A stretch of DNA of 58,544 bases, counting the filler, from Sphacelaria rigidula (Eukaryota), in NCBI GenBank assembly GCA_964200075.2. It is 7 parts of 7 records of this genome, joined end to end, with 100 filler letters (N's around TTAATTAATTAA, not from the genome) between each part and the next. Parts side by side here need not be neighbours in the genome. Positions count along the whole stretch, not along the records: positions 1 to 8,278 come from CAXNAA020011673.1; 6 more parts are not named here. One strand, written 5' to 3'. Below the pieces are notes generated by a model. The model searched no databases. It was not told where the DNA came from and saw only the letters and a list, made by a program, of their open reading frames with translations. Shown here piece after piece: positions 191 through 6,690 of the stretch; position 1 is the stretch's first letter, and the number at the start of each line of letters is the position of its first letter. The position numbers and the translations under genes are program-made.

Positions 191-563
191 AAGTGCTAAG
201 AAAAAGGAAAAGATAACACAAAAGCTGCATACAGAAACAGGCATACGCGGCAACGGTTCACTACAGAACACCGACATACGCGGCTACTGGGTACTGCCGA
301 GGGAAACGTGGGCAACCCGGCTACACGTTGTTCAGGGAAACGAGACCACGAGAGGACAAGGGAAAGCAGAAAAAAGACAAGAAAAAAAACACGACGAGAC
401 CAGGGGGACTACGGTGGGCGGTAGGGACAAACGCAGACAACCGACTCGCAACGGTACTTGAGGAAACGACACCAACGACAAGACAAGGAAAGATGAAACA
501 AAATCAGGGGGGATTTCAAAGAACACGAATAAAATCAGAAGGAACGCAAATTCGCCATCAAGA

Positions 564-1225
564 TCATTCCGTGTCCCACGCCGTGTCAGGGTTGCGCAAG
601 ACAGCTGTGTCGATGTCCCCTTTGTCGTGTCGTTGTAGGCACCAAGATCCTCGGCGAACGGTCGGCATCTCGATGTAGTAATCGTCGTTGAGACGGGTCT
701 TGAGAGGACCCGGGTCATCGAGGAAGCGGATGTAGTACGAATCGTCCGCCTCAGGATCTATCAAATGAATCTTCCCCAGCCACCACCGCGAATCCATAGC
801 CCTGTAACAAAAATATTCATCTTTCGGCAAACGTTTCTTCGAAAAAGAGCGCAGGTATTGCGAACGAGAAATGAGACTATAGCCCGAAATGACAAAACGT
901 GCCGAGTGTTCTCGGGCCAGTTCACGAGCTGCTGCGCCTTTTCGTATAGACCTATATCGTTTGTTCAACGGGCGGTGTTGGACGACATCTCCGACCCAAT
1001 ATAAAAGTATCTCTCTTCGAAAATGACACAATCCTCTTCCCGTTCCCACGTAACACGCATGAGGCCTTTCCAGTGAGTCTGATACATGACCGCAATTTTA
1101 CCGCCTCGACCTCGAACCAATTGATGGCCCGAGATGCGATCTACCACTACACGTTCAAGAGGACCGTCAGCGTCTTCAACCGTCATGTGGTACGGCGGGG
1201 ATTTCGCCGCATACTTGGTTAGCAC
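564..1225 (-). mobile_element. 3' end of a Ty3/gypsy (chromovirus-like) Pol: chromodomain followed by a Tudor-like domain, with a frameshift near 1030
   Basis: ORF 965-1303 gives VLTKYAAKSPPYHMT...VVDRISGHQLVRGRGGKIAVMYQTHWKGLMRVTWEREED, a chromodomain pattern. ORF 564-1049 continues CHFRREILLYW...FCYRAMDSRWWLGKIHLIDPEADDSYYIRFLDDPGP...GSWCLQ. It is followed on the minus strand by a long T-rich non-coding tail (1-560). Confidence 0.75.
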
Positions 1226-1584
1226 TGTTTGAGTGTTTGTAGCTTCGTGACCCCGTAAGAGGATGGGGTACAGACTCGACTCAGATAGTCGACCAATGGA
1301 CACGACTGCGATAGTCGATCAATGGACACGGCTGACTGCCGATCAAGATGAGGTAGAAATGTATATAAAGCTTTTTTGATGAAGAGGGAAGGAAGGGGAG
1401 TGGGCCCTATGGGGGCCAAGGTACCAAGATGCGACAAGCACCACTCACGTATGTCCAGTCACTAACATCACAATATAAAGTCATTCCGCGTAGTACCCGG
1501 AACTCAAACAGGTATGTCACTAGACTGTTGTCCTTACCCTGACTTGGTGTATCTTACTGAACACCGCAGGCCATCCTACGAACA
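1226..1584 (-). mobile_element. 3' LTR of a second LTR retrotransposon inserted into the chromovirus Pol
   Basis: On the minus strand, a G7 polypurine tract (1585-1591) is directly followed by TGTTCG (1584) and the segment ends ...TCAAACA (1226). There is an internal TATA-like CTTTATATAC near 1361-1370. The Pol reading frame starts exactly at 1225. Confidence 0.55.
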
Positions 1585-1690
1585 CCCCCCCATAGACTGC
1601 GCGTGTCAAAAGTAAGGTTCATGGACCATACTTGGTGAACAGAACTACTCACCGGAAAAAGAACTCTTCCGCTCACGGCGCATTCAACAG

Positions 1691-2714
1691 CACACGTGGA
1701 CAGATAGCACCCTTTGGGGCGCACTGTGCAGGGTCCGTCCAGGGTCCTCCACAGTCTTTGTGAAAAAACCCTGACAGTGAAATGCAAAATCTGTACCCGT
1801 GGCAGCGTTTTGATAGGGTTTTCCCCAGGGTTGGACTTGCAGCCCTGTGTAGGCACGTCGGCAAAGCCCTGCACAGTCATGTGGTAGTGTTTTGGTGAAA
1901 AAACCTCAAGTGTTTTTTTTTCGAAAATTCCAAATGTTTTGGTACAAAATCTGTAAATATCTTCAATACCTTGTCCTCCAAAAAGCAAAGCCTTGTCCTC
2001 CTGTCCGAGGTAAATTCCTCTTCACCCGATTTGAGTCAAGCGAAAACGAATTTATTTTGGACAGGAGGTCAAGCTAGATCCGAAACAGATTCTTTTCTCG
2101 CCCGATTAATTTCGGCAAAGGAAAGGATATATTTAGAACAGCAGAAGAAGCTGTTCAAGATCGATCCTTTTTTCGCCCATTTTCGAGATGAGCGAAAAAA
2201 GATCTATTTCGAACAGCTCCATTTGCTGCGCAAATCCCGTGCACACTGGAAAATTCGGAATTTGACCGGCAGAAGAAGCTCGAAATGAATATTTACTTTT
2301 CCCTCCCATTCATCCAGAGATTGGGGGAAACGAAATTCATGGCGAGCAGCGTTAGCTGCTGGGCAAATCCCGCATACTGCATCGTCACGGGTGCATGGGA
2401 TTCGACACGCAGAAAAAGTTGCTGAAAGGTATTCATCCTTTTACCCCCGAGTCCATGTATACATGGATGAAAGATGAATAGCTCTCTACCGCTTTCGCTG
2501 AACAGAGATCCCACACGTTGGATACGTGTGTATGTCCACACCTGTGCTTCGTGTGAAGCCCCTGGGAAGGTGGGAAGATGCCAGATGATCGGATATACCT
2601 CGTCATCATATTTACATTTCCTCCAAAACCCCGTCTTCCGTTCTCTACCAACACGAACCATGTTTAGAAAATATCATTTCTAATAAATTGTATTGTTGTT
2701 GTTGTTGTTGTTGC

Positions 2715-2750
<36 letters not shown>

Positions 2751-4261
2751 CTTCACATTAAAAACCGTTCCGATATCTGCGCGCTACATTGGTACTGGGC
2801 ATCTTATTATGCGGACGCCTTCCGTGGTCACATAATCGTACATGAATAGTATATATCTGGACCATCACTCCGTGTATTTATCACAGCACACAATCAAACA
2901 TCACCAAAAGCACCCGCCCGCACAACGGTGCTATTATTCTGCCCAGCTATACGACCACAACCCGCAGCAAAGAGCACGGGTTGGGCACAGGGATATAGAC
3001 ACATACACGCACTGCCGTGCGGCGCGGGTGGATATGATGTATTTCTCGTTGGTGGAAACTTGAGCACCTACTTCTTTCATGGTCGCGACATCGCGCGGCG
3101 ACGACATATGTGCTGCAGCAGCTGTGCGCGCAAATATATCACGTGGAACGAGCGTGAAAAACTGGAGTTCGTGACGGTATATATAACACCCGCCCCATAT
3201 ATCAAAATAAGGTGCAGGGATCTCTACATTGTATTCATAGCCAGCCATCTGCAGTACATGGCGCCGCACGTATAAGCACGGCGGTAAAGCGCACTGTCCC
3301 GCATGCAACGGTATTGTACAGTCCAGTATAGTTTATTGTTGTGAATATACATCCTGATTACGCAGTATGCGAGAAGATCGATGTTTCATTATCCCCTGTA
3401 TATTGTCTTAGTTTCGTCGACGCGGGACTACGGGGTTTTCATCAGGTGTATCCGTGTATCCGCGAGGTCAATTACCAGATGTTACTATGGCATCAGCTGC
3501 AACAAAAGCTTGCGTGCAGTGTATAGGACTTGAGCAGCTGGAGCTGCTCGCGAGCAAGTCCTTTCTCCACCCAATTTCAGGTGTTCTTGGTGTACAAATT
3601 CCATCTGCGATATACGGTGTATACATAGAATTGTCTGTACAGCTGAAGATTTTCGAAATGAATCTTTTCTCAAATATATTTTCCAAGTTTGAAATTAGGA
3701 TATATTTGAAACAGCAGCGGCTGTCCAAATTTCAGATTTCCATTACACTTGTGCCTCTAAAAACAATTCGGGGGATTCTCGTGTTATTGACACGGACCTT
3801 CGAGGGCCGCCCCAAAATTCAGAAGTACAAAAAGCTCAACAAACCTTTAACGACTGCCACGCGTAGCTCCGTGTACAACCGGCAGGCGACGCTATTGTGA
3901 AGTCGAGGGTTCGACTCCGGCCCACTCTAATCGGGTTTTTTTTCCGCCAGTACCTTGCGCCCGCAGCTGCTTGTGAAGAGTAGTGTTTCTGCGTAAACAC
4001 ACTGCACAGCATTCCCACCAGCGATGAACTATTCACGGGGCGACGGAACCCTGTGATGCACACTATTCATGACCACTGCAGAGAAACCCTGTGGAGAGGA
4101 ACCCTATGATGCACACTATTCATGACCACTGTACGGAAACCCTGTGGAGCGTCCTGTGCTACGCTGGAAAACACTGTACAGTAAAATTCCCGCCAGAAAC
4201 ACTACGCAGGGTACGTAAACCCTGTAGACCCCCTCCACAGGGTGCTATCTGTCCATGTGTG
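1691..4261. mobile_element. Non-autonomous CMC/CACTA(EnSpm)-like DNA transposon, about 2.57 kb
   Basis: TIRs CACACGTGGACAGATAGCACCCT (1691) and AGGGTGCTATCTGTCCATGTGTG (ends 4261), with AG on both sides as a 2-bp TSD. Subterminal duplicated units of about 53 bp lie at 4047-4150. No transposase ORF. Confidence 0.7.
2693..2832 (-). mobile_element. 3' end of a non-LTR retroposon with a (CAA)n tail
   Basis: A (GTT)n run at 2693-2750 abuts CTTCACATTAAAAACCGTTCCGATATCTGCG...GCGGACGCCTTCCGTGGTCAC. The same unit with a short (GTT)n occurs on another scaffold at 24735-24826. Confidence 0.6.
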
Positions 4262-4562: not shown

Positions 4563-5395
4563 CGTGCGATGGCCTGAACTGTGTGAGTGTATTGCAGATG
4601 CTGTAGTGTCGATACAAGACACATGGGGCAAGCGCGGACAGGTTTTCCAATCGCTGATGGTGGACATAAGCTATGTCGAAGTCGCGACTTGTACGTTCAG
4701 CCTATATCCATCCCCAGTCGGGCGGTGGTATTTTTTGGCACTGTGCAGCAGGCGCATTTCTCGCTCGCTACGAGGCCGTTTGCTCCGTGCGATGGCTTGA
4801 ACTATGGCTACGGACTGTTTGAGTGTATTTCTGGTGCTGTAGTGTCGATGCAGGGGACGTGAGCGGGCAGGTATTCCAATCGCTGGTGGTGGACATGAGC
4901 TATGTCCGAGTCGCGACTTGTACATGGTAGCTCATGTCCACCACCAGCCGGGCGGCGGTGTTTTTTTGGCATTGTGCAGCAGGCGAGTTTCTCGTCCACT
5001 ACGCGGCCGTTTCGACCGTGCGATGGCTTGAACGATGGCTACGGACTGTGTGAGTGTATTGCAGGTGCTAGAGTGTCGATGCAAGGCACATGGGACGAGA
5101 GCAGACAGGTATTCCAATCGCTGGTGGTGGACATAAGCTATGTCCACCACCAGCCGGGTGGCGGTGTTTTTTACACTGTGCAGCAGGTGCGTTTCTCGCT
5201 CGCTACGAGGCCGTTTTGGCCCTGCAATGGCTGGAATTGTGGCTACGGACGGTGTGAGTATATTACAGGTGCTGTGGTGTCGATGCAAGACACATGGGAC
5301 GAACGCGGGCGGGCAGTCAAATCGCAGCTGGGGGTGGACATAACTTTTGCCATGTCGCGACTTGGACACAAGCTATGTCCAAGTCGCGACTTGGA
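4563..5395. repeat. Degenerate tandem repeat, about four units of 200-230 bp, with internal palindromes
   Basis: Units start near 4563, 4786, 5017 and 5221 (CGTGCGATGGC...GAGTGTATTGCAG..GCTGTAGTGTCGAT). An embedded hairpin GGTGGTGGACATGAGCTA...AGTCGCGACT...TAGCTCATGTCCACCACC lies at about 4885-4945. Confidence 0.8.
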
Positions 5396-5409: not shown

Positions 5410-6690
5410 ACAATATATGTATCACCCGCCGTTCACAGATTAGATTGCAAACCCGACAACACTTATTCCCAGGTATAATACCACCACAATAACCCTGCAG
5501 CAAAGAGCACGGGTTGGGCACAGGGATATAGATGCACACTGCAGTAGTTGGGCATGATGAATGTCTTGTTGGTGGAAGTTTCAACTTGAGCAGCAGGGTA
5601 TGGTGCGGGCAACAACCGGCGGTTTACCGCATACACACCCACGGACAGTGCAGGCAGACAAAGCTGCGCACACTGTTCGAGTCCTTTTCACGTCGCACAG
5701 TTAGCAGAAAACATACATAACGTCCTGCGCTGTCTGTACTGTACTTCGTCCGCTTCCCTTTCACGTCCTACTGACTGCAGCGGTAAGCATGCTGCAAGAT
5801 CGGGCATCGTGATGAATACACAGTAGCTGACGGTATATAACACCCCCATGATGCACCCAAAGGTACAGGCATCCACTTTTTTTAGCCATACGTGGCGTGT
5901 ATGCCGCGCTAATTCTGCAGTATATTACACCGCACGTATACAAGCACGATATGGTGCTGTCCTGCACGGTATTGTGCAGTGCAGTACAGCATCAAACCAT
6001 GCTTATTGTTGTGATGGTCGTATCGTCATCAACGTACAGAGTAACCGGCGATCATAATTTTTCGCGTGTTCACTCGAAAAAATGCTTCACTTTGATGTTC
6101 GGATGGTAAACACAGGACTACGGGGTTCCGAAAATCTGTGTGTTTAAATATTTGAGGTTCATACAGCAAAATTACCATAGCCACAAGCTAAAGCTGAATA
6201 GCATGGCCGTGTGTACATACACTTTCAATCAGTGTATGGGATTTGAAACCTTCCGAGGCTGCTGAAGACTTCGATCCTCCTGCCCAATTGATATACGAAG
6301 TGGGGGGCAAGAGGACAAGATTTCAACGACTTCTGCTGTCTCTCGATTCTCATCCACTGATACAGTGCAGTATGTGGGACTTGAACAGCAGAAGCTGCTC
6401 GCAAATAAATTTTTTTTCGCCCAATTAAAGGTATTGGCGGGCAAAATGAGGATTTATTTCGAACAGCTTCTTGTGTACAAATTCCATTTGCTAGCGTATA
6501 TGGGATTTGCACAGCCTCTGCTGTTCGGAGTAAATCGTTTTTGCCCGATTCCAATAATTCAGAATCAGGGTTTATTTCGAACAGCAGAGGCTGTGAAAAT
6601 TCCGGGTTTTTATAGCACTTGTGCCTCCAAAAACAATCCAGGGAATTCTAATATCGGCACAGACCTTCGAGGGCCCCGACATTGAAGATC
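5410..6690 (+). repeat. Dispersed non-coding repeat family of about 1.2 kb, probably a DNA transposon derivative
   Basis: Aligns by eye in reverse orientation to 26700-27825, more divergently to 2905-3830, and partly to 13455-13870 and 12660-12900. Shared motifs include GCAGCAAAGAGCACGGGTTGGGCACAGGGAT and GAACAGCAGAAGCTG. Confidence 0.75.

Follow-up and report, generated by a model that had tools for sequence, protein, structure and literature searches.

Nature's clearest examples of targeted integration come from retrotransposon integrases that carry a chromatin reader of their own; so far, these have been found with one reader, usually a chromodomain. A comparable arrangement in trans joins HIV integrase to LEDGF/p75, whose PWWP domain, a Royal-family reader, tethers the integrase to marked chromatin. 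In cis, the chromodomain of the Gypsy element MAGGY, likewise a Royal-family reader tethering integrase to marked chromatin, targets regions of H3K9 methylation, and the survey of fusions between transposable elements and readers in which this is described reports Chromo and PHD domains and, in the portions drawn on here, not Tudor domains (10.1101/2021.11.30.470311). Plant chromoviruses have what are termed group II chromodomains, defined by missing the aromatics at cage positions one and three while the central Trp is kept (PMC3605345). Closest to the locus described here are four Gypsy lineages of Ectocarpus, three of which end in a putative chromodomain; a NADAR domain is likewise present in one of the four, with Gypsy-12_Ec32 given as the example for both NADAR and chromodomain, and the chromodomain-bearing lineages are reported to be unrelated to chromoviruses (PMC12477816, Genome Biology 2025). 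For Ectocarpus, Gypsy lineages with a chromodomain and one lineage with a Tudor domain were thus already in print in 2025 (PMC12477816). As for the chromatin of the hosts, brown algae are reported to have no DNA methylation, no H3K27 methylation, and barely detected H3K9 methylation, to lack PRC2, and to associate H3K36me3 with active genes and H3K79me2 and H4K20me3 with repression (PMC13076208).

The locus considered here occupies positions 564-1225, on the minus strand, of a 58.5-kb window (the whole stretch of DNA analyzed, 58,544 nucleotides from Sphacelaria rigidula) and, by similarity to the intact S. rigidula relative P0003, is a 3' fragment of a Ty3/Gypsy pol gene, comprising the last ~220 codons in two frames. 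Both peptides quoted in an initial annotation of this DNA were found on the minus strand of the window, where two stop-free frames together span 564-1318: frame A (965-1318; peptide P0001), which reads ...ERVVVDRISGHQLVRGRGGKIAVMYQTHWKGLMRVTWEREED and contains ...KSPPYHMTVEDADGPLERVVVDRISGHQLVRGRGGKIAVMYQTHWKGLMRVTWEREED, and frame B (567-1097; peptide P0002), which includes ...FRREILLYW..., continues through ...FRREILLYWVGD... and a basic stretch to ...YFCYRAMDSRWWLGKI...YYIRFLDDPGP...GSWCLQRH, and is closed by a stop codon at 564-566. Residues 29-97 of P0001 align to residues 100-168 of P0003, and residues 23-176 of P0002 align to residues 168-321 (72% identity in frame B), with the frames abutting at P0003 residue 168; since the two align end to end on this relative, they are separated by a single frameshift, located at about 1029-1031 on the minus strand. 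The frameshift that had been suspected near 1030 is thereby confirmed and shown to be single, by this alignment as well as by a one-base length difference from related copies. A tblastn search of the 58.5-kb window with both frames returned the locus itself only and no further pieces of the element.

The related copies were described by aligning contigs of four public sequencing runs (X1, X2, X3, and X6) on window positions 300-1700; no RNA run is among those listed for the locus, no run contains even half of the sampled words, and the contigs therefore represent related copies, the comparison serving to describe copies rather than abundance. The one-base length difference behind 1029 occurs in all four runs (six contigs in X1, five in X2, and one each in X3 and X6) and accounts for about 59% of the depth in X1 and 38% in X2, whereas in X3 and X6 the whole depth shows it. 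At position 807, a letter other than that of the window is carried by essentially all depth in X1-X3 and by 397.6 of 399.8 in X6; it converts the Cys codon at 807-809 (minus strand) to Trp, the residue found in 66 of 75 family members at this place (P0003 W242), so that the Cys codon is private to the window copy. Loose contig ends lie at 1225 in all four runs, and their reverse complement continues as ...KQLP.GLSQY, which is the stretch of Pol located just before VLTKY in P0003 and in a second S. rigidula protein, P0004. As these ends read on into Pol, the other copies continue upstream, whereas the window copy stops at 1225/1226; the end of the feature as first annotated, 1225, coincides exactly with the truncation of the copy. 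The junction of the Gypsy tail with a foreign repeat falls at 1226-1230, with loose ends at 1225 and 1231, and the unrelated repeat at the truncation point (1231-1455, no strand assigned) is of much higher copy number, its contig depth being roughly 2-7 times that of the neighboring 1193-1239 bin in X1/X2 and more than 20 times in X6. At the other end, a single X6 contig covers 300-806, which implies that the non-coding 3' part of the element, common to related copies and located at 300-563 on the minus strand, extends at least to 300; contigs of X1-X3 break at 364-397, and this non-coding part comprises the 3' UTR and perhaps an LTR. The window copy is a dead 3' fragment, 5'-truncated at 1225/1226, with one frameshift at ~1030 and one conserved Trp replaced.

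Other features of the window lie outside the coding fragment. The repeat at 1231-1455 runs on to about 1690, and within it 2.4 copies of a 26-bp unit lie at 1273-1335. Downstream of the Pol stop, at 107-189, is a run of 83 bases rich in A (and hence in T when read along the sense strand of the element), and a (TTG)19 microsatellite is situated at 2693-2750. Two 87-nt direct copies at 3693-3779 and 6563-6649 (78% identity, 2.9 kb apart) are probably another dispersed repeat, and 4578-5348 is occupied by an array of roughly 204-231-bp units, in about three copies that are 71-89% identical, a short palindrome around GGACATA..TATGTCC being present in every unit. Fifteen N runs between 7258 and 50267 (12 of 44 bases, in six regularly spaced pairs, and 3 of 10 bases) suggest masking or gaps rather than biology.

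At a threshold of E<=0.001, a search with P0002 retrieved 32 longer proteins, the strongest match having an E-value of 1.2e-71; P0003, at 72% identity, and P0004 were the best of these. At the same threshold it retrieved representatives of 237 clusters formed at 50% identity, of which 71 reached E<=1e-10. Those relatives that carry an organism name are from brown algae, namely Sphacelaria, Nemacystus, and Ectocarpus sp. CCAP 1310/34. When eight long relatives (P0013, P0015, P0031, P0189, P0006, P0011, P0032, and P0030) were scanned with Pfam, RVT_1, RT_RNaseH, Integrase_H2C2, and rve were found upstream of the tail in all eight; together with the family matches, this bears out the identification of the fragment as a Gypsy Pol tail, and the order RT-RNaseH-integrase is that of the full-length relatives. 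Two of the eight, P0015 from Ectocarpus (E 1.9e-40) and P0189 (2184 aa; E 1.7e-47), begin with an N-terminal YbiA-type NADAR domain; the gene models of the other six start downstream of the NADAR position, and the window copy is without that part. The intact Pol is organized as (NADAR)-protease-RT-RNaseH-integrase followed by a conserved terminal module of ~200 residues, which is made up, in this order, of a chromodomain, a helix of basic character, and a Tudor-like barrel of the extended type. The fusion of the two domains to integrase, which the initial annotation had supposed, is thus found in intact relatives, where the pair sits behind integrase.

The barrel is present in 179 of the 267 proteins collected, 100 of which also contain the chromodomain; 67 of the remainder are too short for the chromodomain to be judged, and 12 are without it (having at least 130 residues before the barrel and no chromodomain match), which places the two domains together in 100 of 112 informative relatives. 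Among the 12, P0034 and P0102 have the chromodomain region translated out of frame, in P0015 and P0033 it is cleanly excised, perhaps as a gene-model intron, and P0059, P0190, and P0074 are a different kind of protein. These last three (828, 832, and 612 aa, respectively) have a terminal barrel, beginning in each at the same point (GY.LVS), and no RT, integrase, or chromodomain; their long N-terminal part contains coiled-coil-like and Arg/Ser-rich stretches. In P0082 (626 aa), a non-Pol N-terminus precedes the chromodomain and the barrel. All four could be gag-tail deletion derivatives, another open reading frame of the element, or host genes with a common domain; a homologue search with the N-terminal part of P0059 returned only P0059 itself (8000 scored candidates, length-limited), and BLAST yielded no matches to it within the collected family proteins. 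A further conserved stretch, RVSVxRCKPC...P.YLP, lies at residues 76-96 of P0003 and in its relatives, between a GPY/F-like motif (LNWTGPxxIL) and the chromodomain, and is poorly modeled (pLDDT <50).

The chromodomain spans 996-1156 on the minus strand, with its strands in frame A (1031-1156) and its C-terminal helix in frame B (996-1028). In the window frame, its match to Pfam Chromo (PF00385; E 0.0035, 17.7 bits) lies below the gathering cut-off of 25.1, as do those of the intact P0003 and P0004 (18.1 and 17.2 bits). An AlphaFold model of P0003, built on 75 of 182 proteins, predicts the chromodomain fold, a three-stranded antiparallel sheet packed on a C-terminal helix; over residues 120-310 the block pLDDT is 84-98, with one block at 72, and the N-terminal 120 residues are poorly modeled. 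An all-against-all structure search with this model placed chromodomains at the top, Foldseek aligned it to MPP8 (32% identity) and also to Swi6, and phmmer with a single chromodomain sequence found MPP8 among PDB sequences at E 0.046, while a chromodomain-only profile of 15 fragmentary sequences gave no PDB sequence matches at E<=10. At the equivalents of HP1 Y24, W45, and Y48, the window copy has Val, Trp (1070-1072), and Leu, and the family has F/W/Y in 3 of 47, 48 of 54, and 4 of 56 sequences, respectively, the second and third positions having been mapped via the MPP8 alignment and the first by our own reading of the V-E/D-K/R-I motif register. The earlier description of a chromodomain that retains only its central cage Trp accordingly holds family-wide: the three-aromatic cage of HP1 is absent, and the pattern is that of group II, with the first and third aromatics missing and the Trp kept.

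Behind the chromodomain, a basic linker helix with the conserved motif YRxMRxGAAxRELxR lies at 909-962 on the minus strand (helix 24-41 of the window model), whose Ala at P0003 position 201 is kept in 68 of 73 sequences. The in-frame peptide of the window from 567-1031 (155 residues), modeled with AlphaFold on 70 sequences, gave a pLDDT of 85 and a pTM of 0.74, with a predicted succession of helix, short strand, helix, and five strands. The latter (model residues 73-77, 83-91, 98-103, 109-113, and 130-135) are predicted to form a five-stranded antiparallel barrel of about 55-60 residues, as is characteristic of Tudor domains, at 627-815 on the minus strand; with the preceding strand and helix, the barrel module spans 627-881 on the same strand. 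When the window model was compared with the PDB by Foldseek (similar chains being left out past rank 10), every match listed at ranks 1-20 was a PHF19 or PHF1 Tudor domain (probability 0.99-1.00), and those listed at ranks 1-25 were all Tudor domains (PHF19, PHF1, PHF20L1, PHF20, and MTF2; probability 0.80-1.00). The PHF19 and PHF1 matches have an rmsd of 2.0-2.6 A over 47-52 columns at 23-26% identity and a TM (target) of 0.62-0.67, apart from 0.49 for one NMR entry and much lower values for multi-domain targets. Later matches include the Tudor domains of PHF20L1, PHF20, MTF2, TDRD3, SND1, and SGF29, interleaved from rank 26 with the TraI relaxosome and a few unrelated structures. In the all-against-all structure search with the P0003 model, extended-Tudor structures (listed at ranks 31 and 40-44) cover both the linker helix and the barrel. 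Foldseek aligned the PHF1 Tudor to the P0003 model with an rmsd of 1.8 A and 32% identity; no Foldseek match reached E 0.001 with either model.

Searches of other kinds point to the same fold. In an all-against-all search independent of Foldseek, about 39 of the 50 matches listed were, by their titles, Tudor, PWWP, Agenet, Spindlin, SAWADEE, or chromo-barrel domains. The family profile, run against all PDB sequences, placed the PHF19 Tudor first (E 0.0028-0.0042) and found PHF1 at E 0.5-0.75; nine of its 13 matches at E<=10 were PHF19 or PHF1 Tudor domains, the other four being an SH3 domain. Among Pfam models of the Tudor clan, none came near its cut-off (BRWD_AD, E 0.0089 and 16.2 bits vs. 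40; Agenet, E 0.23 in P0031), and the best ESM Atlas matches of P0003 residues 195-324 scored 0.75-0.81, a range often reached by shuffled proteins, such that Spin-Ssty, PTM_DIR17_Tudor, and SAWADEE are leads only. The retroviral integrase C-terminal domain appeared in a single weak match to the barrel (RSV integrase, probability 0.28). Judged from the models and sequence profiles, the second domain very probably has a Royal-family, Tudor-like fold, and the basic linker followed by such a barrel, as first proposed, has thus stood up to modeling.

The cage of the PHF1 Tudor is formed by W41, Y47, F65, and F71, aided by D67, and MTF2, with three of the four cage aromatics, binds weakly (PMC7492083). 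A HMMER profile alignment maps PHF1 W41, Y47, F65, F71, and D67 to P0003 residues 245, 251, 270, 276, and 272, respectively. Position 251 is Trp in 64 of 72 sequences, position 270 is Phe in 62 of 73, and position 272 is Asp in 62 of 73; position 245, in contrast to PHF1 W41, is Ala in 41 sequences and Ser in 13, with an aromatic in none of 74, and position 276 is Pro in 67 of 72, again with an aromatic in none of 72. A PHF1-type four-aromatic cage is therefore absent family-wide, two of its four positions being aromatic. Close by in sequence are further near-invariant aromatics, namely W242 (66 of 75), Y243 (Y/F in 65 of 75), W250 (66 of 72), and Y266 (Y/F in 65 of 73), and G253 (66 of 72) and P274 (66 of 73) are also conserved in the barrel. 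The initial annotation had proposed to check that the aromatics are conserved in the family; they are lacking at two of the three chromodomain positions and two of the four PHF1-type Tudor positions. With neither cage complete, any recognition that takes place must rely on a remodeled pocket or another surface; we conjecture that such a pocket might comprise W242, Y243, and W250 beside W251, F270, and D272.

On the precedent of the MAGGY chromodomain, we propose that the tail module probably tethers the integrase to chromatin and thereby biases insertion. The module would stay on the integrase and tether the pre-integration complex to nucleosomes or to a chromatin-bound partner, and this tethering would bias the landing sites of new copies; the working mode would be like that of the chromoviral integrase chromodomain, except that two reader folds follow one another. 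It is doubtful that the bipartite tail, with its remodeled cages, reads a chromatin state particular to brown algae across a widespread Gypsy lineage; were it to do so, its targets might, equally tentatively, be sought in H3K36me3 gene bodies or in H4K20me3/H3K79me2 chromatin. The different repressive mark that the initial annotation had envisaged for the second domain finds no support here; the nearest solved relatives of that domain read H3K36me3, an active mark in brown algae (PMC13076208). The folds might also be genuine but have lost, or never had, the reading of methyl-lysine. They would then contact DNA, a host protein, or histone surfaces that are unmodified, in the manner of an extra SH3-like integrase C-terminal domain, with a role in intasome assembly or nuclear steps and not in the choice of a histone mark. 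Such a function, which we consider possible if somewhat unlikely, would agree with cages that are aromatic at one of three and two of four canonical positions, with the basic linker, with the DNA binding reported for the PHF20L1 Tudor (PMC13285377), and with a host group that has barely any H3K9 methylation and no H3K27 methylation (PMC13076208). The same aromatic loss is, however, seen in the group II chromodomains of plants (PMC3605345). The best sequence matches of the barrel are, moreover, to the histone-reading PCL Tudor domains, whose Y47, F65, and D67 have equivalents that are kept here, and several more invariant aromatics lie beside the cage positions. Group II chromodomains are reportedly still thought to target chromatin, a view credited to Gao et al. 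in 2008.

Tethering by a tandem module would be less of a novelty if the barrel were simply the published Tudor of Gypsy-10_Ec32, in which case the finding would be one more broken copy and the architecture would not be new. A C-terminal Tudor is indeed reported for that element, with a homologue in Tribonema minus, on the basis of InterProScan or HHpred (PMC12477816). We nevertheless hold this identity to be unlikely, as relatives with the same tail (P0015 from Ectocarpus, and P0189) bear an N-terminal NADAR, which is assigned to another lineage (e.g., Gypsy-12_Ec32) described with a "putative C-terminal chromodomain" rather than a Tudor, and the main text of that study names no element with both domains (PMC12477816). 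As for a fortuitous resemblance in a decayed piece of non-coding DNA, the truncated and frameshifted state of the window copy and the sub-threshold Pfam matches might have suggested it, but the 237 representatives at E<=0.001 and 71 at E<=1e-10, the position-specific conservation among sequences only 37-50% identical, and the confident structure models leave it a negligible probability. Chance resemblance was accordingly ruled out by the family matches together with the structure models and their matches.

Compared with described systems, the family most closely resembles the NADAR Gypsy lineage of Ectocarpus (Gypsy-12_Ec32), with which it shares a Ty3/Gypsy Pol, a chromodomain fused to integrase, and, in P0015 and P0189, whose layout is just that of the lineage, an N-terminal NADAR; unlike that lineage as described in the text of PMC12477816, it has a barrel behind the chromodomain, in the great majority of informative relatives. 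Because P0015 and P0189 combine NADAR with the same tail, the window family is, from sequence comparison, most likely this NADAR lineage. With the Tudor-bearing Ectocarpus Gypsy it shares a brown-algal Gypsy Pol that ends in a Tudor domain behind integrase, for which an ancient acquisition was inferred, whereas that element, compared here by its description, is presented as a separate lineage with a Tudor only (PMC12477816). The chromoviruses with group II chromodomains (plant Tekay, Reina, and Galadriel) similarly have an integrase chromodomain without aromatics 1 and 3 and with the Trp kept, but they are described with no second reader domain and were said in 2013 to occur, as far as known, in plants only (PMC3605345), and they differ in belonging to another Gypsy clade, as reported for the Ectocarpus lineages; the "chromoviral" label of the initial annotation is at odds with that report, in which the chromodomain Gypsy lineages of Ectocarpus are unrelated to chromoviruses (PMC12477816). 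The barrel itself is akin to the Tudor domains of PHF1, PHF19, and MTF2 in its five strands, its best profile and Foldseek matches, and its conserved Y47, F65, and D67 equivalents, and unlike these Polycomb-like domains in having Ala/Ser and Pro for W41 and F71, in its extra flanking helix and strand elements, as in extended Tudor domains, and in being borne by a retrotransposon integrase rather than a PRC2 accessory protein. MAGGY and LEDGF/p75 each rely on a single reader with a complete cage, whereas here two folds stand in cis and both cages are incomplete.

The module had been called unusual, and in one respect it is, as searches of full texts turned up no published integrase that carries a chromodomain and a Tudor in tandem, with the proviso that the FASTA/PDF supplements of PMC12477816 may already show the tandem; its single parts are less so, since Gypsy elements of Ectocarpus with a Tudor or with a chromodomain were published in 2025 (PMC12477816). 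The practical value is limited in that the window copy is dead and single-reader Ectocarpus versions are already published. A conserved chromodomain-plus-Tudor tandem would nonetheless widen the repertoire of integrase readers, and, in a host group without DNA and H3K27 methylation and with barely any H3K9 methylation, it offers a testable handle on the features that mark "safe" insertion sites. If a chromatin state particular to brown algae were truly what the tail reads, its integrase would be the first with readers in tandem and could serve as a natural probe of the still undefined heterochromatin code of brown algae.
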